DNA of 64,000 bases from an uncultured Verrucomicrobiae bacterium (lineage in GTDB: Bacteria > Verrucomicrobiota > Verrucomicrobiia > Chthoniobacterales > UBA10450): NCBI GenBank assembly GCA_963726745.1, contig CAVSDR010000005.1, positions 96,001-160,000 on the forward strand, read 5' to 3'. Positions 1,396-64,000 of this stretch are shown here, in pieces. Numbering within the stretch: the stretch's first letter is position 1; every line of letters starts with the position of its first letter. A model generated the notes under the pieces. It did no database searches. It was not told where the DNA came from and was given only the letters and a program-made list of their open reading frames with translations. Made by a program: the position numbers and the translations under genes.

Positions 1396-2094
1396 TCAGG
1401 AAATGGCGCGCGCGATCAGGTAGGCCGCGGTCGCCGCGAGGCCGCCGATGAGCGCCGTCTGGAAGGCGCTCTTGATCTTCGAGACGCCGGTGAAACGGCC
1501 TTTGACGAAGCCGAAAACAAGCAGCGCGATCAGGGTCACGAGGGCGGAGAACGGGAGCGCCGCGCGCGCATCGGTCTCGAGCAGGTAGGGCAGGAGCGGA
1601 ATGGTGCCGCCGACGATGTAGGCGCCGGCGATCGTGAGCGCGCTTTGCAAGGCGCGGCCTGGCTCCGGTTTCTCCAGGCCGAGCTCGAAGCGCATCATGA
1701 AATCGACCCACGCCTCCGGCCGCCGGCTGAGCGCCTCCACCACCGGCGCAGCTTCGGCACTCGTTAGGCCGTAGGTCATGAAAACTTCCGCGACCTCGGC
1801 CTTTTCGACCTCGGCCTTCTCGACCACTTCCTGCCGCTCGCGCGCCAGTTCGCTCGCGTAGTGCTCGGCTTCGCTGCGCGCGGCGAGGAATCCGCCCAGG
1901 CCCATCGCGATCGAGCCGGCGGCGATCTCGGCAAAGCCAGCCGTGATCACCAGACGCGAGGACGCGATCGCGCCGGTGAGCCCGGCGGCGAGCGCGAACG
2001 GCACCGTGAGGCCATCGGCCATGCCGATGACGACGTCGCGCACGCTCGGGCCGGCGGTGAAATGCTGTTCGAGATGCGGCGTGGTGGAACTCAT
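1396..2094 (-). CDS. VIT1/CCC1 family iron/manganese transporter
   Basis: RDVVIGMADGLTVPFALAAG, AEIAAGSIAMGLGGFLA, Glu-rich cytosolic domain, multiple TM helices. Confidence 0.93.
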   Translation of the reverse strand: MSSTTPHLEQHFTAGPSVRDVVIGMADGLTVPFALAAGLTGAIASSRLVITAGFAEIAAGSIAMGLGGFLAARSEAEHYASELARERQEVVEKAEVEKAEVAEVFMTYGLTSAEAAPVVEALSRRPEAWVDFMMRFELGLEKPEPGRALQSALTIAGAYIVGGTIPLLPYLLETDARAALPFSALVTLIALLVFGFVKGRFTGVSKIKSAFQTALIGGLAATAAYLIARAIS

Positions 2095-3228
2095 GGCACA
2101 GGGGATTCGTTTGCGAGGCCGAGCGCGGCCTCTGCGTTGCGGGCAAAGCGCAGGCCGCGGAGGCGCGGGGCTGCGGGGAAGTTTTTCGCGAGCGCGAGGA
2201 ATTGGAATTTCATCCCGAGGAATCCCGGATGCAGCAGGGTTTGCAGACCGCGGGTGAGCGCCGGGTCGCTTGCGACCTTTTCATCGAGCAGGCCGGTGAG
2301 GAAATGATGCTGGTCGGTGAAACCGGCGAGCGCGCAGCCGTGCGCCAACGCCTGCTCCGCCAGGCTGGTCCACTCGACATGCGCGGTGAGATCGGCGCGG
2401 CCGGGATGCGCCAGCGGATCAGGCAGCACTTTGTGGCCGGCGTAACTTTGGAGCGTGCCGCGCGTGCGGTGGGGCGCGTAGAAGTCGGCGCGCGGGAAGC
2501 CGTAATCCGCCACCAAGACCACGCCTTGCGTGAGAATCTTGGACAGCGACTCGATCCAACGCAGCGCCGCCAGGTTGACCTCGGTCTCGTAGCCGGCGGG
2601 AAGCGGCTGCGGGATGAGCTCGAGCCGCGCGGCCAGCGCAGCATTCGTTAGGGGAAGATCGACGAATTCGCCCGCGGCATCGACGCCGCGTTCGCGCCAT
2701 TCCGTGCCGGTCCAGCGGACGAGGTGGACCGGGAAAGCATCGAGCAGTTCGTTCGAAAAATGCACCCCGCGGAAAGGCTCCTCGAGCGTTTCCTGCCAGG
2801 TGATCTTGCTGGCTAATTCCCGCAGCCGCGTCTGCTGCCGCGCGCGCAGGACCGCGAAGGGCTCGACAATTCGGTAGCGCAGCGCGGCGAAAAACTCCGG
2901 CCACTCCTGCGCCGCGGCCCGCAGCGCATCGTGCGCAAAGGCGCCGTCGTGCGCCCCTTGTTCCACGATCGTGAAATCGGTCGGCCGCTCGAGTAGTTCC
3001 CAGATGTCGGCGAACTGCGCCGCCAGCAGCCGCCCGAAGACCGGGCCCACGCTCACGCTCGTGAAGTAATCGCCCCCCCGCCCCACGCGTGCGCGCCCGG
3101 AGCTGTAGTAGCCGTGTTCCGGATGGTACAGAGCCGTCGCCATGTAGTCGGCAAACGGGAGCGCGCCGCCGCGCTGCGCGATCTCCGCCGCGAGGGAGGC
3201 CCGCAGCGCGGGCTCGGCGTTTTGCCAT
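2091..3228 (-). CDS. SAM-dependent methyltransferase, MidA/NDUFAF7 family
   Basis: FADYMATALYHPEHGYY, GDYFTSVSV, SNELLDAFP, ADLTAHV motifs. Likely ATG at 3228 with a 1-nt indel in the T run at about 3220; the ORF-track start is 3251. Confidence 0.88.
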
Positions 3229-3299
3229 TTGGATTTTCGGGGGAGTTGCACCTAAGTTGCGCGCGGCCCCACAGTTTCCCTCTCCGGACTTCACCCGCA

Positions 3300-5813
3300 A
3301 TGTCAGTCTCTTTCCCGCCGCGCCGTCAGCGCGACGAGTATGTCGAATACCGGCCGCCCTGGTATGCCCGGCCGCACTTCTACGTGCCTGCGGGCGTGCT
3401 TCTCGCGCTGCTCGTGGGCGCGGTGATTTATCTCTTTGTGCTCACGGCCGACCTCACTCGGCAGGCCGAGGCGTATGACTTGAAGGAGCTGGACCAGATG
3501 GAATCAGCCAGCGTGATCGTGGACCGGAACGACAAGATTTTCGGCCAGATCTACGTGGAGAATCGCGAGACCGTGCCCTATGACCAGCTCCCGCGCGACC
3601 TGGTGAACGCAGTCGTGGCGATGGAGGACAACAAGTTCTACCAACACAGCGGCTATGACTTGATGGGGATCATTCGCGCGGCCTTGAAGAACTTCACCGC
3701 CGGCCACGTGCGCCAGGGTGCCAGCACCATCACCCAGCAGCTGGCGCGCAATACTTTTGAACTCAAGGAGCGCACCTTCCGCCGGAAATTCGTGGAGCTT
3801 TTCCTGGCGCGCCGGATCGAGGACGCGATCGGCAAACAAAAGATCATGGAGCTTTACCTCAACCGGATTTACTTCGGCGCCGGGCTCTATGGTGCGGAGG
3901 CGGCGGCGCGCGGCTACTTTGGGAAACCCGCGCGCGAAATGACGCTGGCGGAAAGCGCTACGCTCGCCGGCTTGATCAAGAGCCCAAACCGGCTCTCGCC
4001 CTGGACAGACAAGGAAGCTTCGCGCGAGTCGCGCAACGTCGCGCTTTCGCGCATGCGCGACCTGGGGTTTATCTCCGCGGAGAAAATGGCGGCGGCGCAA
4101 GCGGAGCCGGTCGTGACCGGGAGCCGGCAAAGCGCGCAGGGCCAGACCTACGCGGTGGAATATATCCGCCAGCAGGTGATCGCGGCGGTCGGCTGGGACA
4201 AGGCGATGAACGAAGGCTATCGCATCCGCACGACGATCGATGCCGACCTGCAGCAGACCGCGGAGGAATCGCTCCGGCGCCATCTCGCGGAGGTCGAGCG
4301 CACCCCGGGTTACAAGCACGAGACCTACGAAAGCTACGCGGCGCATTTCAAGGTCGCGAAGTCGAAAGGCCAGCAGGGCAAGGAGCCGACACCGGAGTAT
4401 CTCCAGGGCGCGGTGATCGCGCTGGATAACAAAACGGGCGGCATTCTCGCGCTCGTGGGCGGGCGCGATTTCGAGCACAGCCAATACGATCGCGCGCTCC
4501 AGGCGCGACGCCCGGCGGGCACGGCCTTCACGCCTTTCATGTATGCGGCCGCGTTCGAGAAAGGGCTCTACCCCGGCACGGTGGTGCAGGATTCCGCGCT
4601 GGATAATCGCGTGGTTATGATCGGCGGCACTACCGGCATCCTGGGCGAGTGGGGCCCGGAGAATCCCGAGAACCGCTACGAAGGCGCGATGACCGCACGC
4701 GAGGCGCTGGCTAAATCGAAAAACGGCGCGGCCGTGCGGCTCGGCTTGCAGATCGGGGTGGACCCGGTTTTGCAGTTGGTGAAGGCGGCCGGGATCAAGT
4801 CGCCCATGCGTCCTTACCCGGCGACTTTCCTCGGCAGCAGTGAAGTGACGCTGGCCGAACTGGCCCTGGCGTACACCAGTTTCCCGAACGGCGGCACGCG
4901 GCCGAACACGCCCTTCATCCTCGAGCGAATCGAGGAAAAAGACGGCACCGTCGTCTGGCAATCGCGGCACGACAGCCGGCCGCTCCCAGTGATGAAAAGC
5001 GCGACCGCCTTCGAAGTGCATTCGTGCCTGGTTGACGCGCTCGAGAAAGGGACCGGAGCGGCTGCGCGCACGCGGCTCGGGCTGGCGCAATTTCCCGCCG
5101 CGGGGAAGACCGGCACGGCCTACGATTTCACTGAGGCGCTTTTCGCGGGTTACGACAGCAGCGTCACCTGCGCGGTCCGCGCCGGCTTCGACAAGCCGCA
5201 GCAAATCTTCCGCGGCGCCTTCGGCAACCTGGTCGCGCTTCCGGTGTGGGTGGACGTAATGAACGCCGCGGCCCGGCAATATCCCGCAAAGGAACTCGCG
5301 CAGCCGGCCGACGTTTTGACGGTCGAGATCTGCTCGAAAAGCGGCCTGCTCGCGACCGACAAGTGCGGCGAGTTCGCCTATCGCGAGCTGGCCACGAAAG
5401 AACAGATGCCGACTGAACCTTGCAACGTGCACGGCGACGCGCGCACGCGCATTGTCCGCGACCTGCCGGAAGCCGGGGTGCCGCGCGCCGAGCTCGCGGT
5501 CGATACCTCTCAGGTTCACCCGGTGGCGGTGAAAGCGCCGACTCTCCTGGCCGACAATGATCCTTACAACGCGGTCCATTCCACCGTGAAACCGCCGAAG
5601 CCCGAAGGTGCTGAGGACGAGGTCAAGGCGGCGCTGCCGGTGACCAGGGAAGACAAGCTCAAGGCGGCGGAACCGAGCCCGAGCGAGGAGACGGACGAGC
5701 CGGTTTTGCGCGCGCAGCCGGTAGACCCGGCGGACCAGGCGGAGCCGACGCCAGCGGGCGAAGAACCGATTCGGCGCGCCGTTCCGGTGCCGCCGCGGCG
5801 TCGTGGCGCCTAA
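3300..5813 (+). CDS. Class A penicillin-binding protein (PBP1A family transglycosylase/transpeptidase)
   Basis: N-terminal TM; GT51 motifs EDNKFYQHSG, GASTITQQL, RK..E, YLNRIYFG; SKN and KTG motifs. The SxxK motif reads GTAFTP, so the transpeptidase site may be degenerate. Confidence 0.9.
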   Translation: MSVSFPPRRQRDEYVEYRPPWYARPHFYVPAGVLLALLVGAVIYLFVLTADLTRQAEAYDLKELDQMESASVIVDRNDKIFGQIYVENRETVPYDQLPRDLVNAVVAMEDNKFYQHSGYDLMGIIRAALKNFTAGHVRQGASTITQQLARNTFELKERTFRRKFVELFLARRIEDAIGKQKIMELYLNRIYFGAGLYGAEAAARGYFGKPAREMTLAESATLAGLIKSPNRLSPWTDKEASRESRNVALSRMRDLGFISAEKMAAAQAEPVVTGSRQSAQGQTYAVEYIRQQVIAAVGWDKAMNEGYRIRTTIDADLQQTAEESLRRHLAEVERTPGYKHETYESYAAHFKVAKSKGQQGKEPTPEYLQGAVIALDNKTGGILALVGGRDFEHSQYDRALQARRPAGTAFTPFMYAAAFEKGLYPGTVVQDSALDNRVVMIGGTTGILGEWGPENPENRYEGAMTAREALAKSKNGAAVRLGLQIGVDPVLQLVKAAGIKSPMRPYPATFLGSSEVTLAELALAYTSFPNGGTRPNTPFILERIEEKDGTVVWQSRHDSRPLPVMKSATAFEVHSCLVDALEKGTGAAARTRLGLAQFPAAGKTGTAYDFTEALFAGYDSSVTCAVRAGFDKPQQIFRGAFGNLVALPVWVDVMNAAARQYPAKELAQPADVLTVEICSKSGLLATDKCGEFAYRELATKEQMPTEPCNVHGDARTRIVRDLPEAGVPRAELAVDTSQVHPVAVKAPTLLADNDPYNAVHSTVKPPKPEGAEDEVKAALPVTREDKLKAAEPSPSEETDEPVLRAQPVDPADQAEPTPAGEEPIRRAVPVPPRRRGA

Positions 5814-5816
5814 CGA

Positions 5817-6809
5817 ATGGCCTTCCGGCTCTCGGTCTTGAATCCCGGCGGGCGCGACCCGGACCAGGATTTTGCCGGCACGCTCGCGGGCCCGGAGGCG
5901 CCGGGCCACGCGCCGGTGAATTTTCACGCCTACGCGGCCTGCACCGGCGGGGGTTTTCTGCGGGAAACAGCCAGCGCTTTGACCGCGCGGCAGCCGGTGC
6001 TCCTGCTCCTGCGCGGCGACTTCCGGGAAGCGCAGCGCGCGCTCGCGAAGCTGCAAGCCGCCGGCCTGAAAGTGGCGGTCTCGCTCAAGGAAACGGGGCT
6101 GCACCAGATCGCCGCGCAATTGGCCAATCGCGGGCGGCTCCGGCGCTTTCTCGAGCTGGTCCGCGCAGCCGATGGCTGCCTCGCGCCCACGCCGGAGGCG
6201 GCGGATATTTATCGTTCACTCCGCGGAAGCGGCGGCGGCGTGGCCTTCATCCCGACGCCTTACCCGCTCGAGGAAGCGCGCTGGGATTTCTCACGGCCGG
6301 TGGCGGAGCGGCAGGGAATTTTTCTCGGCACGCGCGAGTGGGACGTGCCTTCGCGGAACCACTTTGCCGCGCTCGCGCTTGCCCGGTCGCTCGAGGTGCC
6401 GGTGACGGTTTACGATTTCGCCGGGCGCAAGGGGAAGCACTTGTTAGGCGAATTAGGCGGCAACTTCCGCGTGCTCACGAAACGCGGGTCGTATGCCGAC
6501 TATCTCCGGGTGGTCGCGCAGCACCGGATCGTCCTGCAAATGGACACCAGCTTTGTTCCCGGACAGGTCGCGGGCGATGCGCTCCTTTGCCGCGTTCCCT
6601 GCGTCGGCGGGAATGGCGCGATCGACCGGCTGGGGCACCCGGAGACGTGCGGCGCCGGGCGTTCCGGCGATGAGCTGCGCGCTATTGCGCAAACGCTCCT
6701 GACGGATGACGCGGCCTACGGGGCGGCGGTAACGAAGTTGTCGGCTAACGAGCGGTTGGGCTTCAACGCCGTGGCGGGTGAGCTCGAGAAATTCTACGCC
6801 GCGCTCTAA
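5817..6809 (+). CDS. Glycosyltransferase-like (GT-B fold) hypothetical protein
   Basis: C-terminal VPGQVAGDALLCRVPCVGG resembles the GT4 nucleotide-sugar-binding segment; 3 nt downstream of PBP1A. Confidence 0.55.
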   Translation: MAFRLSVLNPGGRDPDQDFAGTLAGPEAPGHAPVNFHAYAACTGGGFLRETASALTARQPVLLLLRGDFREAQRALAKLQAAGLKVAVSLKETGLHQIAAQLANRGRLRRFLELVRAADGCLAPTPEAADIYRSLRGSGGGVAFIPTPYPLEEARWDFSRPVAERQGIFLGTREWDVPSRNHFAALALARSLEVPVTVYDFAGRKGKHLLGELGGNFRVLTKRGSYADYLRVVAQHRIVLQMDTSFVPGQVAGDALLCRVPCVGGNGAIDRLGHPETCGAGRSGDELRAIAQTLLTDDAAYGAAVTKLSANERLGFNAVAGELEKFYAAL

Positions 6810-7963
6810 CGCGTCACTGCATCGCTTCGAAGTAAATTTCCTCGAGCCGCCGGACCTGGCGATTGCTGCGCGAAATTTTCCTGCACCGCCTGCGCTCCAC
6901 CCTCCGCGAGGCGGGTCAGGCGCTCGGGATTAGCCGCGGCGGCCAGGAGCTCGCTCGCCAGTGCCGCGTGATCGCGTTCGGCCACCAAGATCCCGCTGAC
7001 GTCATGCTCGACCGCCTCCGGAATCCCGCCGTGCCTGGTCGCGAAAACCGGCAGCCCGCTGGCCATCGCCTCGAGCATCGCGTTCGGCACGCCTTCCTGG
7101 TTACCGTCGGCCGCGGTCTCGCTGGGGTGGAGGAAAAGGTGCGCGCGTTCGAAGAGTGCGCGCAGCGGCTGGAAGCCGGGAAAATGCACCCGCCCGGCCA
7201 CGCCCAACTCGCTGGCTAATTCCCGCAGCTCCGCCAGCATCGGCCCGTCGCCCGCGATGGTGAACTCGGCTTGCGGATACGTTTTCGAAAATTCGGCAAA
7301 GGCGCGCAGGCTGGTGCGCAGGCCTTTCTTGGAAATGAGCCGGCAAGCCTGGAGCAATTGCCAGCGACCATCGCGCGGCCACGCGCGCGCGTGGAATGGA
7401 AATTCCTCCAGCGGAATGCCGGTGCGCTGGAGGCGAATCTTCGCTTCCGGGCAGCCCAGCCTAACGAGAGCTTCGGCGAGCGATTGCGAACGCACGAGCA
7501 CAAGCCGCGCAGCCGCGAGCATCTCCGCGGTCGCGCGGCGGTAGGCCGGCTTGTCGAGATCGACACCGACATCGGCGCCATGAAAGGAAACCACGCTCGG
7601 CCGTTCCCACCTTTTCAGCAGCGGGAGCAGGTGCACCGCGATGTGGCCGAAGTAAACATGCAGCAGGCGGGCGTCGGTTTCCCGCAACACCGCGAGCAAG
7701 CGCTCCTGCTCCCCGCGCGAGATTTGCCAGGGCGTGTCGCGCAGTTGCCGATACCAAATGCGCCGGAGGAATTGCGTGCGCGGCCGCGGGACGATCCGCA
7801 GGTCGGCGAAGGGGAAGCGCGCGGCCTCCTCGCGTTTCCGCGTGAGCACGAACGGCCGGACGCGCTCGAGCGCGGTGATTTGCCGGTAGATGTGGAGCAT
7901 CTCCGGCTTGAGGAAGGTCGCGCAATAGGAAGCGACGACTGGCCGTTCGTCGCGCGCGTTCAT
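6806..7963 (-). CDS. Glycosyltransferase family 4 (WcaL-like); probable frameshift near 6860, true stop probably at 6814
   Basis: VSFHGAD, RLISKKG, HPSETAADGNQEGVPNAMLEAMASGLPVFATRHGGIPE. The alternative frame ends VRRLEEIYFEAMQ*. Confidence 0.9.
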   Translation of the reverse strand: MNARDERPVVASYCATFLKPEMLHIYRQITALERVRPFVLTRKREEAARFPFADLRIVPRPRTQFLRRIWYRQLRDTPWQISRGEQERLLAVLRETDARLLHVYFGHIAVHLLPLLKRWERPSVVSFHGADVGVDLDKPAYRRATAEMLAAARLVLVRSQSLAEALVRLGCPEAKIRLQRTGIPLEEFPFHARAWPRDGRWQLLQACRLISKKGLRTSLRAFAEFSKTYPQAEFTIAGDGPMLAELRELASELGVAGRVHFPGFQPLRALFERAHLFLHPSETAADGNQEGVPNAMLEAMASGLPVFATRHGGIPEAVEHDVSGILVAERDHAALASELLAAAANPERLTRLAEGGAQAVQENFAQQSPGPAARGNLLRSDAVTR

Positions 7964-10779: not shown

Positions 10780-13634
10780 CCGACGGTGTAAACCGCGAAC
10801 GGCAGCGTCGCCAAAGCGTCGGCTAATTTTAGCCGCCCGCCTTCCGCGGTGAGTTCGCGCCCGGTGAAAAGCTCGCGCGCCTGCTGCGCCGCGGCTGGCA
10901 GCTCCACCGCGGTTTCCTGCCAGGCCTCGCCGAGTGGCGGAAAACCAACCCGCGAACTCAAGCGCGGAACCACCACCACGATCCATTGCTGGCCCTCTTC
11001 GCGCGCAAAGGCGACGACCGACTCCGCGTGCGTGCCCATGACCTGGAGCGGCACGTAGCTGTGCGAACGGAAGAGCGCCGGATGCTCGCGCCGGAAATGC
11101 AGCAGCTTCTGGATGACGTAAAGCTTGATCCGACCATCGGGCCACGCGCCTAACAAGTCCTCGGGCGCGGCTTCCTTGACCTCCGCGAGCAGCTCACGGC
11201 GTTTCCCGTAATCGACCGGCCGGCGATTGTCGGGATCAACCAGCGAATCGTCCCAAAGCTCAGTCCCTTGGTAGATGTCCGGCACGCCCGGCGCGGTCAG
11301 TTTCAAGATCACCTGCGTGAGCGAATTCACCGCCCCGAGCTTCGCGATTTCCTCCGCCAGCGGCAGGAACGCGGGCACGAAACGGTTCTTCACGCCTGGC
11401 TCAAGAAGGCCGGCGATGAACTTCTTCACCGCCTCGTTCCACTCCTCGTTAGGCTGGATCCAACTGGTGTTCACCTTGGCCTCGTTCATCGCCTTGGCCA
11501 TGTAAGCCTGGATGCGCTCGATGTATTCCGCGCTCGCTTCCGTGACCGGTTTGCCTAACGAGTCCACCGGCCAGGTGCCGAGGATCGTCTGGTAAAGGAG
11601 GTATTCCTCGTTCGCGTCGGGCGCGTCCGCTTCGTCGATCTTGGTCTTGTGCCGGCGATTGATCGTGCGCCAGCGCTGCAGGTGCGTGCGCCATTTATCC
11701 GGCACCTCGGAGAGCGCGATCATGCGCGCGCGCACGTCCTCGCTGCGCTTGGTGTCGTGCGTCGAGGTGGTGTTCATCGTCGAGGGCCAGTGCTCCGCGT
11801 AATGCCGGAGCTCCTCGTGGAATTTCTCCGGGGTGATCCCGAAGACCTGCGGCTCGCCGCCGACTTCGTTCAGCGCGGCCAGGCGGTTGAAGAGATAAAA
11901 CGCCGTGTCTTCCAAGCCCTTGGCCATGATCGGCCCGGTGGCCTGCTGGAACTTGAGCACGAAGTGCACGTGCGCGGCGCGCGCTTCGTCATCGAGATTC
12001 TCCGGGAAACGGAACGAGAGAATGTCGCGCAGGAAGTTGAAGACCGAGCCTTCGATGCCGGGGTTGCGCCGCTTGGCCGAGGCGATCGCGCGCTCGATCA
12101 CCGCGAGGTCTTCGTCGCTCACTTTTCCCTCGGGCGTGACGTAGGTCCGGTAGACCGGGAAGCAGGCGATCGTCTCGCGCACCGCGAGGCTGAGCTGGTC
12201 GAGCGTAAAGTCGCGGAACCAGCGGTTCTGTTCCGAAAGGCGGTCGAGTAAATTACCCAGCACTTTGACGTCGTTCGAAAGCGAAAGGCGCATGACCAGC
12301 CGCTTCTTCGCGTAAACCAGGTGCCCGAGGTGCATCGAGTGCCCGAGGAATTTCCGGAAGGTTTTCGTGATCGCCTGCTCCGCGCTCGGGTCGCACAGGA
12401 GGCTGTTCACGATCCGGCCAAAGTCGTAGCCAGTGGTGCCGTGCACCGGCCAATCGGTCGGCAAACGCTCCGGGCCGGAGAGGATTTTTTCGACCACGAG
12501 GTAAAGCGCGCGTCCGTCTTCCGGCAGCGCAATCCCGAGCGCCTCCGCGGAGCGCTGCTGCAGCTTCGCGAAATATTCCTTCGGCAGGTAAAGGCCGTCC
12601 GGGTGATCGATCCGCAAGCCGGTGACCGCCCCTTCCTTGACCAGCTCGAGCACGAGCTGGTGAGTCGCATCGAACACTTCCGGGAGCTCCATCCGGATGG
12701 CCGCGAGATCGTTGATGTCGAAGAAGCGGCGGTAGTTGATCTCCTCCGCGGCCACGCGCCAGAAGGCGAGCCGGTAAGCCTGGTCGTTCAGGAGCTCATC
12801 GAGCGCGTCAAAACTGCGGGCCTCGCCGGGTGTGCCGTTGATTTTAGCCAGCGCTTTCTCGATCGCCTCGCGCACGGGCGCGGCTTCGCTGCAACGCCGC
12901 TCGAGCCGGCGTTTGACGATCTCTTTTTCGCGGGCGCGAATGGCCACGCGCTCGGGATCGGTCTCGCTCCGGCGCGGGAGATTCTCCAGCGCGGTGATGA
13001 TGCTCTGGAACTCGGCGTAAAAGATCTCCTCCTTGTGCGGCTCCAGCTCTTCGAGCGCGAGATTGAGCACGTGCCGGTAAGTGCCGGGCGCGATCGGGAA
13101 TTGGTTCTCGAAGTAATGGAGGAAAAACGCGCCGCTGTCGTACTTCACCTGGAGCTCACCGCGCTCGAGCACGCGTCCGTATTGGTCGCCCAAAATAGGC
13201 AGCAGGACCTTGTCCCAGAGGTCCTGCTTCAGCGGCTTCCAGTCGATGTCGAAAAAGGGCGCGTAGGTCGAGCTCGGGCCGTTCTCGAGCACATCCATCC
13301 ACCATTGATTGAGCGGCTCGCCCACGCCCATGTGGTTCGGCACGAAGTCGAGCACCTGGCCCATCCCGCGCTCGCGCAGCGCGTCCACGAAGGCGTCGTA
13401 TTCCGCGCGTGTGCCGATGGCGGCGTTGAGCTTGTTGTGATCGGTGATGTCGTAGCCGTGCAGGCTCTCCGCGCGCGCCTGGAAGTAGGGCGAGGCGTAG
13501 CAATCGCTGATCCCGAGCTCGTCGAGATAGGGCACGATTTCGCGCGCCTGGTTGAAGGTGAAATGCCGGTTGAATTGCAACCGGTAGGTCGAGGTCGGGA
13601 TGCGCGGGTGTTCGGGATTCACGGAAGTAGGCAT
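10776..13634 (-). CDS. treY: Malto-oligosyltrehalose synthase (GH13)
   Basis: [68 protein letters not shown]. Confidence 0.96.
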
Positions 13635-13720: not shown

Positions 13721-15358
13721 ATGAGATGCTTCCGCGGTGGCGTGGTTCTTGGGCTGGCCGCCCTGGCCATGCCCTCGCTGGCAGCCGAGGAGCACGCGGG
13801 CCACAGCTCGTTAGGCAAAGTAGATTTCCCGGTCAGCTGTTCGCCGGCGGCGCAGGAGGAGTTCACCCACGCGGTCTCGCTGCTCCATCACATGACCTAT
13901 CCGCAGGCGCGCGCGGCGTTTCAGCAAGCGATGAAAACCGACCCGTCCTGCGCGTTGGCGCAATGGGGCTTCGCGATGACGCTCTTCCAGCCGCTTTGGC
14001 CCACGCGCCCCAGCCCGGCAGCGCTGCAAGCTGGCTGGGAAGCGGTGCAAAAAGCACAGACGCTGGACGCGCCCACGGCCCGCGAGCGCGCCTTCATCGC
14101 GGCGGCGGCGGCGTTCTTCGAGGAACCGCAGGCGGACGATTATTGGGCGCGCATCCGCCGTTGGGAAGCAGCCATGGCGAAGGCCTACGCGGCCTTTCCG
14201 GAGGACGATGAAGTGGCTGCCTTTTATGCGCTGGCCCACCTGGCGACGGCGCCGGCCGACACCATCTCGCGCGAGCATGCCGATCGCGCGGCCGCGATTC
14301 TCCTGCGGCTCTACAGGAAGAATCCCGAGCATCCCGGCGCGATGCATTACCTGGTGCACGCAAACGACGTGCCCGGCCGCGAACGCGAGTCGCTCGAGAT
14401 CACGCGCCGCTACGAGTCGATCGCGCCCAACAACCCGCACGCGCTCCACATGCCCACGCATATCTACACGCGGCTGGGCGATTGGGACGGGGTGGTGCGG
14501 GGCAACTTGAAGGCGGCGGAAGCGGCGCTGGCCCACCCGGCGGGCGAGCGCCAGGAGTATGTCTGGGACGAGTTTGCCCACGCGATCGAATACCTGGTCT
14601 ACGCCGATCTGCAGAAAGGCGACGATGCCGCCGCGGCCGCGCAATTAAATCGGCTGCACGGGACGCCGCAACTCGAGCCGAGCTTCAAGACGGCGTTCCA
14701 TCTCGCCTCGACCCGGACGCGTTATGCGCTGGAGCGCCGGGATTGGGCCGAGGCCGCAAAGCTGGCCGCGCGTGAGCCCGCCGCGCTGCCGTGGGATCGC
14801 TATCCCTGGGCGGAAGCGATCGCGCGTTTCGGGCATGGCCTGGGCGCGGCGCATCTGGGCGAACTCGACGCGGCCAAGGCCGACATCGCGCGCTTGCGAG
14901 CGCTCGAAGAGGTGGCGAAAGCATCCGGCGAGGAACTCTTCCAGCGGCACATTCGCGTGGCCCGCCTGGAACTGGAAGGCTGGAGCGCGCAGGTCGCCGG
15001 CGAAGGCGAGCGCAGCCTCGCGCTCCTCCGGGAAGCCGCCGAGCTGGAAAGCGCCACGCCGAAACATCCGGTCACGCCCGGCCCGACGCTCCCGGCACAC
15101 GAGTTGTTAGGCGACTTGCTCCTGGAACAGGGCGCGCCGGCCGCGGCGGCGGCGGCTTACCAGCGTTCGCTCGAGCTTTACCCGCGCCGCCTGAACAGCC
15201 TCCTCGGGGCCGCACGCGCCTCCGCCGCGGCCGGCGATGGCGCCGCCGCGCGGAAATTTTACCAGCAACTTGTGGCCCTCGCCGGCCAGGGCACGCGCCG
15301 CGCGCCGCTCGCAGAAGCGGAAAAATTTCTCGCCGCAGGCGAAACCGCGTCTCGTTAG
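13721..15358 (+). CDS. Secreted TPR-repeat protein
   Basis: Signal peptide, LGKVDFPVSC, HPGAMHYLVHA, HALHMPTHIY, TPR-like helical repeats. Confidence 0.8.
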   Translation: MRCFRGGVVLGLAALAMPSLAAEEHAGHSSLGKVDFPVSCSPAAQEEFTHAVSLLHHMTYPQARAAFQQAMKTDPSCALAQWGFAMTLFQPLWPTRPSPAALQAGWEAVQKAQTLDAPTARERAFIAAAAAFFEEPQADDYWARIRRWEAAMAKAYAAFPEDDEVAAFYALAHLATAPADTISREHADRAAAILLRLYRKNPEHPGAMHYLVHANDVPGRERESLEITRRYESIAPNNPHALHMPTHIYTRLGDWDGVVRGNLKAAEAALAHPAGERQEYVWDEFAHAIEYLVYADLQKGDDAAAAAQLNRLHGTPQLEPSFKTAFHLASTRTRYALERRDWAEAAKLAAREPAALPWDRYPWAEAIARFGHGLGAAHLGELDAAKADIARLRALEEVAKASGEELFQRHIRVARLELEGWSAQVAGEGERSLALLREAAELESATPKHPVTPGPTLPAHELLGDLLLEQGAPAAAAAAYQRSLELYPRRLNSLLGAARASAAAGDGAAARKFYQQLVALAGQGTRRAPLAEAEKFLAAGETASR

Positions 15359-23495: not shown

Positions 23496-23640
23496 GCTTT
23501 CCCGGGTTCGGGAGCGCCAACCTTAGCGGTCGCTCCCCGGATGACAAGTTTGCATTTGGCAGAGGAAACGGAGCGGGAAAATGCAGCCGCGCCGAGGCCG
23601 GTGGCGAAAGCGCGGAGGCTGCGATAACCTCTGGGCCCGA

Positions 23641-40865: not shown

Positions 40866-40913
40866 TAGCGAAATCCTAGAAAACTCGAAATCACTGCAAC
40901 CCCGCACGCACCC

Positions 40914-41591: not shown

Positions 41592-41612
41592 GCGTTTAGC
41601 CAAGTTTCCAGC

Positions 41613-41647
41613 ACAGCCCCGGTAGTTCGTCTGCCGGGGCTGTCTTG
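41613..41647 (+). terminator. Terminator-like hairpin
   Basis: ACAGCCCCGGTAG / CTGCCGGGGCTGT stem with a weak U tail. Confidence 0.6.
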
Positions 41648-41667
41648 CGTACCGGCCCGAGCAGCGG

Positions 41668-41696
41668 TTGACGGCTTCGCTTCGCGCAGCCATATT
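41668..41696 (+). promoter_or_regulatory. Putative sigma-70 promoter of typA
   Basis: TTGACG-N17-CATATT, 30 nt upstream of the ATG. Confidence 0.5.
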
Positions 41697-41726
41697 CCGC
41701 GCCCCTCATTCGAGGGGACTCGTCTC

Positions 41727-53256: not shown

Positions 53257-54830
53257 ATGTTCGGGCGCAAAAATTTCCCTCTTCTCGCGGCGGTGCTCGG
53301 CACCCTCGGCGCGGTCGCGCTGCAGATTTTCTTCGGCCTGCATGCGGGTGCCTTGTGGCGGGATGAGGTCACCAGCGTGGAGATCGCGAGCATGTCGAGC
53401 TGGGGCGAGACCTGGGACAATCTCGCGTTTGAGTCCTTCCCCGCGCTTTTCGTCGCGCTGCTTCGCTTCGTCGCGGGCGTGCCGCACGGCGCCAGCGATG
53501 CAGAGTTGCGGGTCTTCGGCGTGGTCATCGGGCTGCTCCTGCTCGCGCTGCTCTGGGTGAACGCGCGCTGGCTGCGCTTCGGTTTGCCGCTGCTTTCCCT
53601 CGCGCTGGTTGGTTTTAATCCCATGGTCGTGCGCTACGGCGATTCCATCCGCGCCTATGGCCTGGGCATGGTGGTGATCCTTTTCGCGCTGGGCGCCTTT
53701 TGGCGGCTCACGGAAAAGCTCTCGTTAGGCCGCGTGTTCTGCGCGCTCGCGGCCGCGCTCTTGAGCGTGCAATGCCTCTACTACAACGCCTTTCTCCTCG
53801 GGGCGATTTGCCTGGGCGCGGTCACGGTGGCACTGCGGCGGCGGGATTTCCGCACGGCGGGAACGGTGGTTGCGCTGGGCGCGCTCGCAGCGGTCTCGCT
53901 GCTGCCTTATCTCCCACGATCCACCGGGTGCAGGCGTGGAGTTTCATCTGGCAAACGCCGTTCAAGTGGTCGGCTATTTCCGCGAAGGCGGCAGAGACTT
54001 TCGGCGCGCCGCTCGGCGGCTTCGCCTGGGTTTGGCTGGCGCTGTTCTTCTTCTCGTTAGGCGCCGGGATCTGGGCGCTGGTGCGCCAGCCGGTGGAAGA
54101 CCGGACGCTCTTCGCCCTGGTGACGCTGGTCGCGGGGACGGCGGCTTACCTGGTCTTCCTGCGGATGCTGAGCTACCTCACGCAGCCGTGGTATTACATC
54201 GTCCTGCTGGCTTTTGCCGCAGTCTGCCTGGAGATGTTGCTCGCGGCGAACGTGCGGCCGGGAGTGCGCGCGCTTTTCCTGGTCGCATTTGCCGCGCTCG
54301 CTTTTCTCCCAGCGCTCAAGTCCCTCGGCGAACGTCAAACGAACATCGACCTGGTCGCGCAACGGCTGGAGGCAATGGCGGCAGCAGACGACCTGATCCT
54401 GGTAAACCCGTTTCCCTACGCGATCTCGCTGCAGTATTACTACCATGGTCGCGCCCGCGTGCGGACGATCCCGCCGATCGACGATTTGCGTTCCCATCGC
54501 GCCGATCTGCTGAAGACGCAGTTGATGGCGCAGACGCCGCTCGCGCCGATCTTCGCGCAAATCCAGGAGACGCTGCAGGGTGGCCACACCGTCTGGCTGG
54601 TGGGCGGGGTAAACTTTGTCCCGCCAAATCAGTCGCCGCTGTGGGCGCCGCCGGCAGGGGAACATCCGGATGCGAAGAGCGTGGCGCCGATTTACCGCGC
54701 GTGGAGCGAGCAAACCGCCTTCGTTTTGCAGCAGCGCGCGGCGACTTTTGAGCGCGTCCCGGTGCCGCTGGCGCAGCCCGTGATCCATTACGAAAACGTG
54801 GCCTTGAGTGCGTTTCGCGGCTGGAAGTAG
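53257..54830 (+). CDS. GT-C fold membrane glycosyltransferase-like protein (frameshift near 53920)
   Basis: LWRDE after TM1, RAYG motif, many TMs; continues in ORF 53700..54830. Confidence 0.7.
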
Positions 54831-57067
54831 CCGGCTAATTCACCGGCAGCGGCGTCCAATCGAAAGCCGGCGCCGCCGCTCGCTGCCGCTCGCCACCCGC
54901 GGCCGAGGGTCGCGAGGCCAATGAAGGCCAGCGCTCCCCAGCTGGCGATGAGGAGGGAGGGCATGCCGAGCGGCCGGAAGCGGAACTCAATGCGGTTCGC
55001 CCCGCGAGTCACGGGCACGGCGCGGAAGATGAAATTGGCGCCTTCCACCGGCTGCGCGACACCGTTGACCGTCGCCTGCCAGCTGCGCGACCAGCGATCG
55101 GTGACCATGACCCAGCCGTCGTCGGGCGCTTCGACCTCGAGGATCATTTTCTCCGGCGCATACTCCCGCACCACCGTCGGCACGCGGCTCGCGGCGGAAA
55201 CTTTCGCGGGATCGAACGGCACCGGCGTCTTCTCCTGGCCGAGCATCCCGGCGCGCGAATGCCGGATGATGACCGGCCGGTCCAATTGCAGCAGATCGAC
55301 CGTGTAGACGTTAAAGGTCTCGTTATCCGGCGGCAGCAGCGGCGCGTCCTTGCTGAACCAGGTGCGCTCCGCCCCGAGGGCCATGTCGCTGAACGGCGGC
55401 CATTTTGTGATCAGGTGATGGTAGTAATTCAGGAGCGGGGTGTAGTTCCACAGCTGCGGCTGGCGCGCGAGGACATTGGAATTTGCCTGCCCTTTCCCGA
55501 GCACGCGGTCAAACCGCGGCGCAAGCGAGGACACGTGCGCCTGCGGGGGATCGGCTTCCCAAGTGAAAACGGTCGCCTGCGAAAGGCGCGCGGTCGCGAG
55601 CAGATCGAGCACCGCGAGGAGCACGAAAATCCCTGGTGCGAGCGGCGCCCAGCGTTCGAAGTGGCGCGCCAGCGCCAGGCCCAGGAAGACCGGGCCGATC
55701 CAGACGATCACCAGGTGAGCTGTGGTGAGCGCGGCGTGCGGCAGTCCCACGAGGGCGATCGCGTTGACCGCCCCGAAGCCCACGAACGCGCAGACCGCCA
55801 GGAACAGCGCGAGAAATTGAAAGCCCTGGAGTGCGCGTGCGCCGGCCTTCCAGCGGGCGAGGTCGCGCGCCCCCAGGAGGGCGAGCGCCGACAGCAGGAA
55901 AATGAAATAGCCGCGCAGCATCGCGGAGTGCCGGAAGAAACGCGTTGGCGGGAGGAGATCGTACATCCAACCGCGCAGCGGGAGCGTACGCGACATCGCG
56001 CAGGCCAGCGCAAGGAGCGCAAGCGTCACGAGAAACCAGCGCCAGCCACGCTCGCCGCGATTGCCTAACGAGACCAAGGCCAGGAGCAGGGTGGCCGCGC
56101 CGGTGTAGAGGCTCAGGCAGGAGACGTCGGTGTAGCTCCAGAGTGACGGCTGCCGCATCTTCAGCTCGCCGTAGGCCGGACTCCCGAGAGTCACCAGGCT
56201 GCCCGGATGGAGCGCGTTCGACTCCAGCGCATATGGCCGGCTGATCGGCTCGCCGCGGTCGCTGTAGCCGCGGCCTTCCCACACCGCGCTGATCAGCGAA
56301 GGCGCGAGGATCACCGCACCGACGAGACCCACGACGAGCAAGCGCAGAAACGCGCGGGTGCAACGCGCGGCGGTCGGTTTTTCCAGCGAGAAAAGCGAAC
56401 GACCGACTGTCCACAAGCCGAGCAAGCCGGCGGTGCAGACGGTGAACGAGGGATAGCCCGCGAGCCCGGAAAGTCCCCAGAGCGCGCCCGCCTGGAGAGC
56501 CGGGAGCCAGCGAGAGGATTGCAGGGCCACATCCAGCCGCCAGAGGATCCACGGCAGGAGCGAGAAGGAATAGACCACGAGCGAGTGCTCCGCGTGCCCG
56601 GTGTAAAACCCGGAAAAGAGATACCCGAGCGCGACCACCAGCCCGCCCCAGACAGGCGCGCGCCAATGCCGCGCGAGCAGGAGCATGCCGAAACCGCCGG
56701 CTAACCAAATCAGCAGCCAGTAGGCGATGTAACCGCCCCCGCCCGGGCCGGTGAGCGCAGCCAGCAGGATCATATCGGGCGACAAGGCTCCGGCGCCGGC
56801 GATGGCGAAATCGGGCGAGCCGCCCGCGAGCCAGGGATTCCAGAAGAGCAAATGGCCCGCGCGCGCGCAGTCGGCCACGAGCGAATAATACGGCATGCCG
56901 AGGTCGTAGGCGTCCCATTGTTCGTGGCCCTGGCCGGTGAGCAACGGCCAGTTGGCCACCGCGAAGAGCGCGGTAAGGATCAAGGCCGCGTGCCGCCAGC
57001 GCATGCGGGAGGCGCCCGCGAGCCAGCCTTCGAGAATCGCGAGAAAGGAGGAAGCGGCAGCAGGCAT
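54788..57067 (-). CDS. YfhO-family membrane protein (GT-C)
   Basis: LFWNPWLAGGSP, multiple TMs, C-terminal WQATVNG..ANFIFRAVPV..G.NRIEFRFRP. Confidence 0.8.
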   Translation of the reverse strand: MPAAASSFLAILEGWLAGASRMRWRHAALILTALFAVANWPLLTGQGHEQWDAYDLGMPYYSLVADCARAGHLLFWNPWLAGGSPDFAIAGAGALSPDMILLAALTGPGGGGYIAYWLLIWLAGGFGMLLLARHWRAPVWGGLVVALGYLFSGFYTGHAEHSLVVYSFSLLPWILWRLDVALQSSRWLPALQAGALWGLSGLAGYPSFTVCTAGLLGLWTVGRSLFSLEKPTAARCTRAFLRLLVVGLVGAVILAPSLISAVWEGRGYSDRGEPISRPYALESNALHPGSLVTLGSPAYGELKMRQPSLWSYTDVSCLSLYTGAATLLLALVSLGNRGERGWRWFLVTLALLALACAMSRTLPLRGWMYDLLPPTRFFRHSAMLRGYFIFLLSALALLGARDLARWKAGARALQGFQFLALFLAVCAFVGFGAVNAIALVGLPHAALTTAHLVIVWIGPVFLGLALARHFERWAPLAPGIFVLLAVLDLLATARLSQATVFTWEADPPQAHVSSLAPRFDRVLGKGQANSNVLARQPQLWNYTPLLNYYHHLITKWPPFSDMALGAERTWFSKDAPLLPPDNETFNVYTVDLLQLDRPVIIRHSRAGMLGQEKTPVPFDPAKVSAASRVPTVVREYAPEKMILEVEAPDDGWVMVTDRWSRSWQATVNGVAQPVEGANFIFRAVPVTRGANRIEFRFRPLGMPSLLIASWGALAFIGLATLGRGWRAAASGGAGFRLDAAAGELAGYFQPRNALKATFS

Positions 57068-59608: not shown

Positions 59609-61534
59609 CTAACGAGTTATCCGCATGCGACCGAGTGGAAGCGGCGGAGCCAGTAACGGAATCTCCGCCCCGGTCTTGGGCTGCCAGGTGGCACGCGACC
59701 GGTCCATGAAAAGAAGCTCGCCCTCAAATTCGCCGGGAGCGAGATCGGCTGGCGGATTAACCAACCATTTCTCTACATAAAGGCCTTCGCCCGCTTCCGG
59801 CGCGGCGAGTCCGCGCTGCAGGATGAAAGGCGGTCCGCCATTGCCTGGTCTTAGGCGAAGCACCATCCATGGGAAGACTTCCCGTTCCACACCGAATTGC
59901 CAGGTTAAGGTTAACTCGAGTGCTTCCCGTGATGAGAAATTAGCCGACGATTTCTCAATTTTGAGGAGCTTCGTTCCCGCGCCCATTTCGATTACCGAGA
60001 CGGCATTCTCCAGCGCGGGCGCGGCGCGCTTTTCCACCCGTCGCAGAAGCGTTAGCTCGTTCTGCGAGACGGATTCCCATTGCGCTTTGACCAGGAAATC
60101 GTGGAGCAATTCCTCGCTCGAGGGGAACGCTTCGCCGCGGGCTGTGCGCATGCGCGGATGGAAGTAACCCGACCCCGGATCGAAGGTCGCCTGGTCGCCG
60201 TAATCCAGGAGCACGTAATCGGTCGGCGGCGGTGGCTGGAAACGTTCACGGCTAAGGGTGCGCAGGCCTTTGAGAATGTAATGGAGCGAGTGCAGTCGCT
60301 CGCGCAGCGCCAAGTGAGTGAGGTAGGGAAGCGGCGCGACCACGCTCGCTTCCGCCGGGATCGCGCGCAGGAATTCCTCCTTCCGTAATCGATCCGCTCG
60401 GCCACCCGACCATTCCTGCGCCGTGCGCAGCATGCCCGCGGCCGGGCCGATCCAAAGTTGCCCAATGAGACAGGCGGCGAGAATTGCCGGCGGCAGCCAG
60501 CGTTGGCCCCGGCGAAAACCAGCCACCGCTTCGACCGTGGCCAGCCAACAAAGCGGCAAGAGCGGCGCGGCGTAATGAAAGAAAACCGTCCACTCCGACG
60601 AGCGCCAGGAAAGCAAGTGCTGCAGCAAAACAGGCAGCGCGATCAACAGCCAATGTGGCCGCAAGAGTGGCAGCGCCAGGAATGGGAGCAGCAGGGCCCA
60701 GAGCAAATTGCCGTGAGCTAACGAGTGGCCGAGCGCGCCCAGGGCGAGCTGAGGTTGCAGGATAAAATTGCGCAGGATCTCGCCGCCGGATGCACCCAAG
60801 CGATCGTAGAGTGCGAGGTAATCGATGTTCCCGGAGTTCAACGCCGGCGTGATCACCTTGCTGGAAAAAATAAACCAACCGAGCGCGCCCAGCATCGGCC
60901 AGGCATACCAGCGCAGCAGCTCGCGCCCTCCGCGTCGGCGCTCCCGCCAGGCCTCGACCACACAAAAAGCCGCCAATAACAGCGCCATGTTTTCCTTGCA
61001 GGCGAGCACCGCGGCGAACCAGCACCAGTAAGCGCCTACTCGTCGGCGCAGGCGCGCGTGCCACAGGAGCAAAAGGAAGGGAGCGGTCAGCGCTTCCGGG
61101 TGAAACTCGTGCAGCGCCACGTAACCCGTGGCCGGGATAAGCAGGAGGGCCAGCGCCAGCAGGACGCTCGCCGTTTCGCCTATGCCGGACCGGCGCGCGA
61201 TCCGGTAGCCGACAAGTCCCATCGAGGCGAGCCCGAGGTTTTGCAGGACCACAAAGGTCATCGGATGCGGGAAGAGGAAGAAGATCGGCGCGATAAGCAG
61301 AACGATCGGCTCCACGTGGTTGCCGAGCAGCGGGACGTATTGCACCGAGACCTCGAGGCGTCCGTGGATCAATTGCCAGAGCGCCTGCACGTAGTAGGCC
61401 AGGTCAAAGGTGCGATAGGCGAAACCGGCCCAGCGGGCCGCGGAAGTGGCGGTCCAGGCGAGGAAGCAAAGCAGCGCCACGCCTGCCACCAGCGTCGCGC
61501 CGCGGCCGTCGTTTCGCTCGCTCTCCCCGTGCAC
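59609..61534 (-). CDS. DUF2079-like membrane protein (GT-C fold, predicted glycosyltransferase)
   Basis: FDLAYYVQALW, LGNHVEPI, EFHPE, CKEN, FHYAAP; C-terminal soluble domain. Confidence 0.82.
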   Translation of the reverse strand: MHGESERNDGRGATLVAGVALLCFLAWTATSAARWAGFAYRTFDLAYYVQALWQLIHGRLEVSVQYVPLLGNHVEPIVLLIAPIFFLFPHPMTFVVLQNLGLASMGLVGYRIARRSGIGETASVLLALALLLIPATGYVALHEFHPEALTAPFLLLLWHARLRRRVGAYWCWFAAVLACKENMALLLAAFCVVEAWRERRRGGRELLRWYAWPMLGALGWFIFSSKVITPALNSGNIDYLALYDRLGASGGEILRNFILQPQLALGALGHSLAHGNLLWALLLPFLALPLLRPHWLLIALPVLLQHLLSWRSSEWTVFFHYAAPLLPLCWLATVEAVAGFRRGQRWLPPAILAACLIGQLWIGPAAGMLRTAQEWSGGRADRLRKEEFLRAIPAEASVVAPLPYLTHLALRERLHSLHYILKGLRTLSRERFQPPPPTDYVLLDYGDQATFDPGSGYFHPRMRTARGEAFPSSEELLHDFLVKAQWESVSQNELTLLRRVEKRAAPALENAVSVIEMGAGTKLLKIEKSSANFSSREALELTLTWQFGVEREVFPWMVLRLRPGNGGPPFILQRGLAAPEAGEGLYVEKWLVNPPADLAPGEFEGELLFMDRSRATWQPKTGAEIPLLAPPLPLGRMRITR

Positions 61535-62278: not shown

Positions 62279-62683
62279 ATGCTAAACCAACTCTCTAAGA
62301 AAAGCCGCGCGGGTTTCACCCTCGTGGAAATCATGATCGTCGTGGCGATCATCGCCCTCCTCGCCGCCATCGCCGTGCCCGGCTTCCTGCGCGCCCGCAA
62401 GCGGTCCCAGGCCAGCAAGGTAATTAACGATCTGCGCATGATTGATTCCGCGATGGACCAGTATGCCATCGAAAAAGGCAAGAAGAGCGGCGACCCGATC
62501 GCGGTGGACGACTGGATCGCCTACGTGAAGAAGGACACCCAGCTCTACGCGACCGGCGCCGATTTGTTCGGTCACTCCTACGGCGACCAGACGGTCGACT
62601 CCCTGCCGAAAGTTCCGCAGGCGACCTATGACGCTCTTTCCGACGTGGCCGACACCTCCTTCTGGTCGCCCTTCAATCAGTAG
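62279..62683 (+). CDS. Type IV pilin 3 (diverged paralog)
   Basis: KSRAG|FTLVEIMIVVAIIALLAAIAVP; shares TGADLFG and FWSP with pilin 1. Confidence 0.92.
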   Translation: MLNQLSKKSRAGFTLVEIMIVVAIIALLAAIAVPGFLRARKRSQASKVINDLRMIDSAMDQYAIEKGKKSGDPIAVDDWIAYVKKDTQLYATGADLFGHSYGDQTVDSLPKVPQATYDALSDVADTSFWSPFNQ

Positions 62684-62775
62684 CCTTACTCGACTGTAAC
62701 TCCGGGAAGCGTCCTTTCGTCATCGTGCGGAAGGACGCTTTCTGCGCTTAAAAGCAGCTTCTTCGACTGGAACCC

Positions 62776-64000
62776 ATGGAAGCCACTCTTAGCTGGAAAA
62801 CTCTCCCTGCGCCCGAGTCTCTCCCGGACACGCGCGGCGCCCTTCTGCGTCATCCTTGTTTCCACGCCTTCCTTCTCTTGGTGGTCGGCTTTCTGGTTCG
62901 TCTGCCCGCGCTCCAGGGGACGCCACTCTGGGACGATGATTACCTTGTCGCGGAGAATCCTTTCATCCGCAGCCCGCTGCTTATTCCGGAAGCTTTCCGG
63001 CATTACCTTTTCCCGGATGGCTTCGGCTCGCATTACCGTCCGGTGCAAAACGTTTCCTTTGCGCTCGACTATTGGTTCTGGAACACCGACGCCTACGGCT
63101 TTCACCTGACCAATGTCCTGCTGCACCTAACGAGTGCAGTCTTTCTCTACCTGCTCCTGCGGCGTTTGCTTCCGGGCTTGGTCGGCCGCACTCACGGCGC
63201 CATGGTGGCTTTTGCGGTCGCGTTCCTTTGGGTGCTGCATCCGGTGCATAGCGCAGCGATCGATTACATCTCCGGGCGGGCGGATAGCCTGGCCTTTGCC
63301 TTCGCCAGCGGCGGCTGGCTGCTTTTCTTGCGGGCCGAGCAGGGCGCGGGGAGGCGCAAGGTTGCCGGCTATCTAGGCGCGGCCCTCTGCGGTTTGCTGG
63401 CGCTGGCCTCGCGCGAGAGCGCGCTCGTCTGGCTGGGAATTTTCCTCCTGCACACCTTCGCTTTTCGCGCCGGTCTTTCCTGGAAATGGAAAGCCACCTG
63501 CCTCGCCGCCTGCCTCGCGCTCGTGGCCGGTTACGCCGGCTTGCGCAGCCTCCCACAACGCCAGTCCGGCCCGCCCAAGTCCGAGCCCACGAGCGCGCCC
63601 GTGCGCGCCGTGCTTATGCTCCGCGCGCTGGGCGATTACGGGCGGCTGATGCTTTGCCCGACCACGCTCTACATGGAGCGGAGCGTGCTCGACCCGGAGA
63701 ATTACCTCAACACCCCGAGCTGGAGGAAGTCGGTCAAGACGGAATACCTCTCGTTAAGCGGAGCGCTCCTCCTGGCGGCTTTCGCGTTCGGTTGTGCCCG
63801 TCGCGGCGCCGGGCGCCAGCTGCGGGTCTTCGGCAGCGCCTGGTTTTTTGCCGGCTACCTGCCGGTTTCCAATTTGCTCGACTTGAACGCCAACGTCGCC
63901 GAGCACTGGCTTTACCTCCCGAGCGTCGGCTTTCTCCTCGTCCTCGCCGGCTGGGTTCTGGAGTTCTCTCCGCGTGGTCAGCGGGTCGCGGTCGTGGTTG
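62776..64000 (+). CDS. TMTC-like (DUF1736-type) GT-C protein mannosyltransferase homolog, 3' partial
   Basis: Own translation (absent from the ORF track because it has no stop): LWDDDYLVAENP, HYRPV, FHLTNVLLH, LHPVHSAAIDYISGRAD, SRESA, AEHWLYLPSVG. Confidence 0.8.
   Translation, partial: MEATLSWKTLPAPESLPDTRGALLRHPCFHAFLLLVVGFLVRLPALQGTPLWDDDYLVAENPFIRSPLLIPEAFRHYLFPDGFGSHYRPVQNVSFALDYWFWNTDAYGFHLTNVLLHLTSAVFLYLLLRRLLPGLVGRTHGAMVAFAVAFLWVLHPVHSAAIDYISGRADSLAFAFASGGWLLFLRAEQGAGRRKVAGYLGAALCGLLALASRESALVWLGIFLLHTFAFRAGLSWKWKATCLAACLALVAGYAGLRSLPQRQSGPPKSEPTSAPVRAVLMLRALGDYGRLMLCPTTLYMERSVLDPENYLNTPSWRKSVKTEYLSLSGALLLAAFAFGCARRGAGRQLRVFGSAWFFAGYLPVSNLLDLNANVAEHWLYLPSVGFLLVLAGWVLEFSPRGQRVAVVV

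Follow-up and report, generated by a model that had tools for sequence, protein, structure and literature searches.

Three dispersed DNA words in soil Chthoniobacterales, one of them family-wide, with statistics resembling those of uptake sequences

The window, a stretch of 64,000 nucleotides corresponding to C5:96001-160000 in the 3.41 Mb genome of an uncultured Verrucomicrobiae bacterium (hereafter G000; 7 contigs, 95% complete), carries 35 dispersed copies of the heptamer CTAACGA, the core of a repeated motif referred to below as word A. Several copies provide the stop codons of genes, and the window also holds sites of a second motif, word B, as well as a block of secreted-protein genes poor in words. 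The positions of the 35 copies and their strand split had been given exactly by an earlier reading made from the letters of the window (the sequence-only reading), whereas its GC content of about 66% is corrected here to 64.5%. Genes were called with our own dicodon caller, yielding 3,184 genes in G000; this set is approximate, and the assembly contains several apparent frameshifts, as is typical for long-read assemblies. The features of the window related to word A are the following:

1761..63133, both strands (21 plus, 14 minus): 35 dispersed copies of word A with the core CTAACGA and the consensus (G)(C)CTAACGA(G)(T)SSW
5810..5816, plus strand: word A copy, TAA stop of a transglycosylase-transpeptidase gene
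15352..15358, minus strand: word A copy, serving both members of a convergent gene pair as stop (TAG on plus, TAA on minus)
28994..29000, plus strand: word A copy, TAA stop of a secreted S8 peptidase gene
46676..46682, minus strand: word A copy, TAG stop of a Rho-domain gene
59609..59615, plus strand: word A copy, TAG stop of a minus-strand DUF2079 gene
23500..41700, plus strand: word-poor secreted-protein block (S8 peptidases, dockerin, PEP-CTERM), with 3 A and 5 strict B in 18.2 kb

The abundance of word A was evaluated against (i) dinucleotide shuffles (n = 100), (ii) Markov models of order 2 and 3, and (iii) a synonymous-codon shuffle within each gene. The shuffled windows contained 3.21 copies on average and 8 at most, where the sequence-only reading had estimated roughly 4. 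Genome-wide, CTAACGA is the top-ranked 7-mer of G000, with 2,025 copies distributed over all 7 contigs versus 136 (order-2) or 194 (order-3 Markov) expected. The enrichment survives the codon-aware null model: 1,464 copies were counted within the called genes versus approximately 128 after the synonymous shuffle (11-fold), and the 9-mer GCCTAACGA was counted 972 times versus approximately 22 (45-fold). As anticipated from the window, several reading frames and rare TTA codons are used, the word being enriched 5- to 32-fold in each of the four stop-free frames, in both orientations, and 668 of the 2,900 TTA codons of G000 falling within it. The consensus GCCTAACGAG reaches approximately 18 bits with its flanks. 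Among one-off variants, changes in CTAAC or in the last A are near background, whereas changes in the flanks and from G8 to A are common. The strand bias that had been proposed as a check is absent relative to the local GC skew (698:728, the origin and terminus not being located in the 7 contigs of G000), and no period was detected at 5–150 kb on two 1-Mb contigs (periodogram versus gap permutation, p = 0.17 and 0.93).

Word A provides the stop codon of 326 of the 3,184 genes of G000, including six among the gene calls of the window where five had first been counted. Where convergent genes end close together, it is present in 105 of 371 cases. The gene ends supplied by word A are true ones: 32 of the 38 that could be tested lie at most 10 residues from the gene end of a relative, i.e., 84%, as for other genes, and stops located within A or B match true ends at 84% and 80%, versus 84% for the remaining stops. 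One of the window copies closes the Rho-like open frame at 44787-46682 (plus strand), which carries a C-terminal DUF4112 domain and is either a fusion or two genes merged by a frameshift.

The density of word A drops to 0.15/kb in the lowest 5% of genes by GC content at third codon positions (GC3), which is only a proxy for acquisition, versus approximately 0.6/kb, and both A and B are about half as dense in dockerin/PEP-CTERM genes as genome-wide. The secreted-protein block of the window is word-poor because A density falls in atypical genes and halves in dockerin/PEP-CTERM genes. Between 23.5 and 41.7 kb, 3 copies of A were found versus approximately 11 predicted by the genome rate; this is the block first noted as nearly free of the motif (23.6-41.6 kb), a region picked after the fact.

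The 9-mer GCCTAACGA reached 138–2,435 copies in 37 of 37 genomes of the family, versus 1–35 copies in 24 genomes that represent 15 further families of the order. Across 111 family genomes (28 genera), it varied from 13 to 4,336 copies, and 99 of these genomes held 100 copies or more. In a sample of the phylum, SCTAACGAG was at background (0–35) in every one of the 298 genomes outside the family. Word A is a marker of one soil Chthoniobacterales family, of which we take Candidatus Udaeobacter to be a member. Its abundance in relatives whose assemblies comprise hundreds of contigs speaks against the basecalling artefact that had been considered. The tallies of relatives (37-genome, 60-genome, methyltransferase and integrase sets) include the unpublished genomes G001, G008, G030 and G035, and those of the 111 family genomes (A, C, ComEC and SNase-ComEA) the unpublished G357; pooled locus statistics may take in some unpublished genomes, and no conclusion rests on those rows.

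The origin of the copies was followed in orthologue pairs of at least 55% identity, using 60–220 kb per genome from 14 relatives. Where residues were unchanged, A sites were common to G000 and G033 in 13 of 18 cases and to G000 and G032 in 12 of 13, so that the site conservation proposed as a check was observed at 25 of 31 sites, versus 27–30% for random 7-mers; with the low-density G002, none of 8 was shared. An rpoB site reading TCG TTA G (Ser-Leu-Gly), with the rare TTA codon, is retained in 14 of 19 family genomes, and a second rpoB site in 5 of 20, all of high density. A gap near the site was seen in only 20 of 242 A-site comparisons, above the 2% background yet a small minority; most A sites are therefore substitutions. 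An A site and a B site are covered by two short, near-identical contig pieces with 2-3 differences, at positions not given. In 19 multi-genome alignments, the rows of which are kin, the consensus of the A-less rows is departed from by 48% of the residues under A, versus 12% in the flanks; in columns at least 80% conserved, 17% of the residues under A differ versus 2.6% in the flanks. From this site sharing and these residue changes, it follows that a DNA-level force writes word A by substitution, at times overriding protein conservation.

Copies of the same word avoid each other. Pairs of A closer than 200 bp numbered 110 versus 247 expected in G000, and 115 versus 159 in family loci (1,088 copies). 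The deficit persists within genes (35 versus 81 expected below 150 bp in G000), concerns all orientations, and is larger than in 25 control 7-mers. Similarly, 44 C-C pairs below 200 bp were found versus 67 expected, and 98 strict B-B pairs below 300 bp versus 148. Unlike words show no such deficit, with 476 A-B pairs below 300 bp versus 441 expected and 32 C-A pairs below 200 bp versus 21. Such a spacing rule would be expected from one saturable reader per word.

Word B was revealed by masking A in G000. It is an imperfect 16-bp palindrome, AWSKYGYYGGCTAWWT, a quasi-dyad with its own 5' arm. The sequence-only reading had taken GGCTAATT for a heptamer variant; this was rejected, since the motif has its own 5' arm, its own distribution and no cross-avoidance with A. 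It belongs to word B, and the examples listed for it in that reading are word B sites. The window sites are:

2803..2818, plus strand: word B site (AWSKYGYYGGCTAWWT type), the former 'variant', a separate motif
6451..6466, minus strand: word B site, model posterior 1.0
7206..7221, plus strand: word B site
10813..10828, plus strand: word B site
19494..19509, minus strand: word B site
21459..21474, plus strand: word B site
22981..22996, plus strand: word B site
48569..48584, plus strand: word B site
54825..54840, plus strand: word B site

A mixture model gives approximately 5,000 word B sites in G000, probably with false positives. In its strict form, ANNNNGYYGGCTAW, word B was counted 1,304 times in G000 versus 65 for a reversed control, and 963 times within genes versus approximately 43 after the synonymous shuffle; no gap was found in 158 orthologue comparisons. 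Of 60 relatives, 58 have strict B at background level and the other two (G011 and G015) approximately threefold more, i.e., word B is nearly private to G000. A loose model had suggested that B is normal where A is missing; this was abandoned, as the genes concerned also have only half the usual density of strict B. A third word, C (WTGTCGATCTT), dispersed on both strands, emerged in loci around a family-core gene (e.g., L155 and L144). It reaches at least 400 copies in 26 of the 111 family genomes and up to 4,514, with 17 in G000. It occurs in G354, G390, G405 and G356, and A and C are found together in genus g24; G354 combines 1,803 copies of A with 4,514 of C, and the A-poor G107 has 676 of C.

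With moderate confidence, we read words A, B and C as tags for sequence-biased uptake or recombination that would have spread by molecular drive, with one reader per word. Judging by its statistics, word A seems to work like an uptake sequence, and by the same measure the two unrelated words of G000 appear to behave like the 'self' uptake tags known from Neisseria and Haemophilus. During uptake or recombination, a sequence-specific reader would favor kin fragments bearing A, and word-gaining alleles would displace wordless alleles until coding constraints halt the spread; word B (in G000) and word C (in other lineages) would be served by separate readers with additive effects. Same-word copies would then space out over 200–300 bp because one copy per short fragment suffices, and unlike words would not avoid each other because each has its own additive reader. 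To our knowledge, molecular drive is the sole described process that yields the whole pattern, i.e., thousands of genic copies born by substitution, both orientations, a coding cost, scarcity in foreign DNA and a saturating effect within each fragment. According to Mora et al. (PMC7811141), drive can by itself give rise to distributions of this kind and should lead to even spacing, and a second uptake signal sequence (USS) within 100 bp gives no extra uptake. The same coding footprint is described for uptake sequences by Findlay and Redfield (PMC2817400). A further-reaching version, which we consider somewhat unlikely, has several parallel, independently gained self-recognition channels in this abundant soil family. 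An old family-wide A, identical to the end of the integron attC sites of the order and so carried by cassettes at no cost, would be joined by lineage-private B and C, each written into thousands of gene positions once a new reader had arrived, thereby layering exchange barriers (family, lineage) over fragments of a few hundred bases.

Comparison with known systems helps to place these words. Chi and KOPS (FtsK-orienting polar sequences) are high-copy asymmetric 7-9-mers that are strand-polar along replichores; word A is without polarity and was rejected as a motif of this type. The USS of Pasteurellaceae and the DNA uptake sequences (DUS) of Neisseriaceae resemble A in being present as about 1-2 thousand asymmetric 9-10-mers, in both orientations, mostly within genes and at poorly conserved residues, and in being scarcer in atypical genes and biased to gene ends (PMC2817400, PMC2346458). 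Besides, DUS exist as dialects built on a common core, two of which can occur in a single genome, as described by Frye et al. (PMC3630211), G000 also having two words. However, USS and DUS have no sequence likeness to A; inverted terminator pairs are typical of them; 23% of USS are given as lying less than 100 bp from another (PMC7811141), whereas A shows a deficit of close pairs; and no receptor resembling ComP, or the predicted PpdA/ComN, was identified here. The highly iterated palindrome HIP1 of cyanobacteria (GCGATCGC) resembles A in being hyper-abundant, conserved in genes and a family-level marker with an orphan methyltransferase in the same clade, but it is a palindromic octamer with a 10-90 kb period where A is asymmetric and no long-range period was found (by a method other than that of Xu et al.). 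The methyltransferase of HIP1 recognises a site inside the word; the family enzyme here is also found in word-poor genomes. Of the undescribed signature first proposed, the uptake-sequence likeness is retained (DNA-level conservation, forced residue changes, both orientations, depletion in atypical genes, family restriction) and the HIP1 likeness is weak. A possible likeness to the CtsM/RAATTY system of Campylobacter jejuni lies in the orphan methyltransferase as a self mark, RAATTY being a short palindrome. The R' box of integron attC sites has the consensus GTTRRRY. Word A is similar in that the attC sites of this order end exactly in TCGTTAGGC, and differs in that over 99% of its copies are in housekeeping genes without the rest of an attC (paired R''/L''/L'/R' boxes).

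The competence machinery of G000 includes comEC, dprA, comM and comF (regular-expression matches, ComEC being confirmed by Pfam), together with 18 pilin-like starts and three secretins. In the window, three near-identical type IV major-pilin-like genes (59144-59542, 61722-62121 and 62279-62683, plus strand) surround the DUF2079 membrane gene, with glycosyltransferase-like genes close by; the middle copy (61722-62121) is frameshifted, through an assembly error or as a pseudogene. The ComEA of the family is a fusion protein, present in many Chthoniobacterales, that joins a secreted nuclease of the SNase family to a helix-hairpin-helix domain of ComEA type (L110:1498-2370, minus strand). This fusion was matched in 73 of 111 family genomes, i.e., 28 of 29 with more than 1,200 A copies and 45 of 82 others, these kin not being independent. 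It was dropped as a reader specific to A because it is also found in 5 of 10 outgroups. The 5-methylcytosine methyltransferases, present in 5 of 5 genomes, patchy and in some cases broken, were likewise rejected. Two 14-mer scans of viral contigs gave 135 loci, 128 of which hold the seed copy only, with 4 copies at most; in the contigs L324 and L212, GCCTAACGA occurs 4 and 3 times, respectively, in 7.7 kb. Because the hosts are unknown, these counts are uninformative.

Several observations weigh against reading the words as uptake tags. ComEC, tried as the reader, is found in 106 of the 111 family genomes at any density (13 to 4,336 copies) and, being present whatever the A density, accounts for none of its variation. 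The ComEA of G000 is represented only by an SNase part and a detached helix-hairpin-helix remnant (C4:17230-17874 and C2:230130-230290), no intact pilin-like protein of this genome is strongly basic (net charge from -4 to +4), and no protein reading A was found, in a search of which whole-proteome annotation was not part. The self-avoidance of A is strong in G000 and weaker in relatives, with none in the chunks of G032 and G036 taken alone. A is not clearly depleted in the rRNA region (3 copies in 6.5 kb), and inverted pairs of the terminator type are limited to 5 within 30 bp among the 2,025 copies. The tripeptides PNE, PND and SLG encoded under A are enriched over their reverses, whereas LVR and LTR are not. 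Finally, A, B and C have no core common to all, although known dialects share one.

The strongest rival, which we nevertheless consider somewhat unlikely, holds that each word is the binding site of an abundant cytoplasmic protein that organises the chromosome or protects DNA, maintained by weak selection per site in huge soil populations. The conservation and spacing data fit it equally, a second nearby site being worthless because the bound protein would cover approximately 300 bp. The quasi-dyad of word B would suit a homodimer, close pairs have no orientation preference, A density is unrelated to competence genes, and a nucleoid role has been argued for HIP1 (Xu et al., PMC5861425). However, no candidate protein was found (without full proteome annotation), the 5-150 kb period is lacking, a density range of approximately 250-fold within one family fits poorly with a needed structural role, and changes forced in conserved residues need a strong force per site.

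That A is a methylation-gated self mark appears improbable. According to this proposal, an orphan methyltransferase modifies a base in A and a downstream step takes only marked DNA. A suitable enzyme exists, i.e., an orphan beta-class DNA methyltransferase with an SPPY motif (C3:981251-982042 in G000, L114), convergent with an HD-domain gene. It is core to the family and rare outside, being found in 33 of 36 family relatives (approximately 69-78% identity), 2 of 24 genomes of other families and, within the phylum sample, 2 of the 298 genomes outside the family, and no restriction enzyme was seen next to it in G000. The proposal is in line with the description of C. jejuni as taking up RAATTY-methylated DNA only (PMC10046745) and of methylated HIP1 as raising transformation (PMC13756078). 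However, the enzyme was rejected as a full explanation, being also present in the A-poor G107 and in the A-negative G057, G051 (partial), G140 and G222. No residue cleanly splits high- from low-density loci, and the best solved relatives are distant (E ~1e-19). Family-specific 4-6-mer biases pointed to no clear target, and one small enzyme leaves B and C unexplained.

Even less probable is that A is the target of an integron integrase or a related tyrosine recombinase, having spread through recombinase-primed allele exchange or cassette traffic. The attC arrays of families f5 and f6 end in (C/G)TCGTTAGGC, the crossover end of attC sites in this order. A cluster of 8 attC sites is found in G000 (C6:737800-744800), a genome without a detected integron integrase, and C shares GATCTTG with many attC ends, as noticed after the fact. 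Nevertheless, attC ends account for only 10-12 of the 2,025 copies, and A sites are substitutions, not scars. No integron integrase exceeded the cut-off in G000 or G024, each of which has only two XerC/D-type genes detected, whereas many word-free outgroups have an integrase. Density is alike with or without it (158 versus 147 per Mb, p = 0.64). Neither the integron integrase nor a stand-alone integrase domain tracks A, and the genome targets of the integrase are reported with a GWT consensus only (bioRxiv 10.1101/2022.09.11.507474). Least credible of all, and already largely refuted for A, is a functionless origin of the words from context-dependent mutation or repair bias or from basecalling error, to which the apparent frameshifts of the G000 assembly and the near-confinement of B to it would lend themselves but against which stand the presence of A in 28 genera and in fragmented assemblies, its one-off core variants near expectation and not drained, a self-avoidance and cross-genus site sharing unexpected from local bias, and stops within A or B that are true gene ends.

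No paper on A, B, C or the spacing rule was found in a literature search that did not extend to subscription journals and supplements. We know of only two families, both proteobacterial, in which sequence-tagged uptake of self DNA is established. If the words are indeed uptake or recombination tags, soil Chthoniobacterales would provide a third case, with coexisting words of different ages from which one could learn how tags arise and how fast a proteome is rewritten. It would also bear on gene exchange among widespread soil bacteria, tagged DNA then becoming a practical handle for genetics and binning. Under the rival readings too, some force changed about a quarter of the TTA codons of G000 and supplied a tenth of its stops.

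Other repeated sequences were noted along the way. GGAGTAG and GGAGTTG, considered as further words, are local coding repeats, and GGCTACAG is part of an intergenic hairpin element. REP-like (repetitive extragenic palindromic) intergenic hairpins bounded by CTGTAGCC...GGCTACAG occur every few kb in some lineages (L164, L167, L186, L187, L191, L195 and L196). In two genomes of family f5, G054 and G040 (L086-L093, L024, L032), CTAAC and CTAACAT are enriched, in clusters and not evenly spaced. Lastly, GTAC (0.15) and CTAG (0.27) are strongly under-represented throughout the genome of G000, and likewise in many, not all, genomes of the order.

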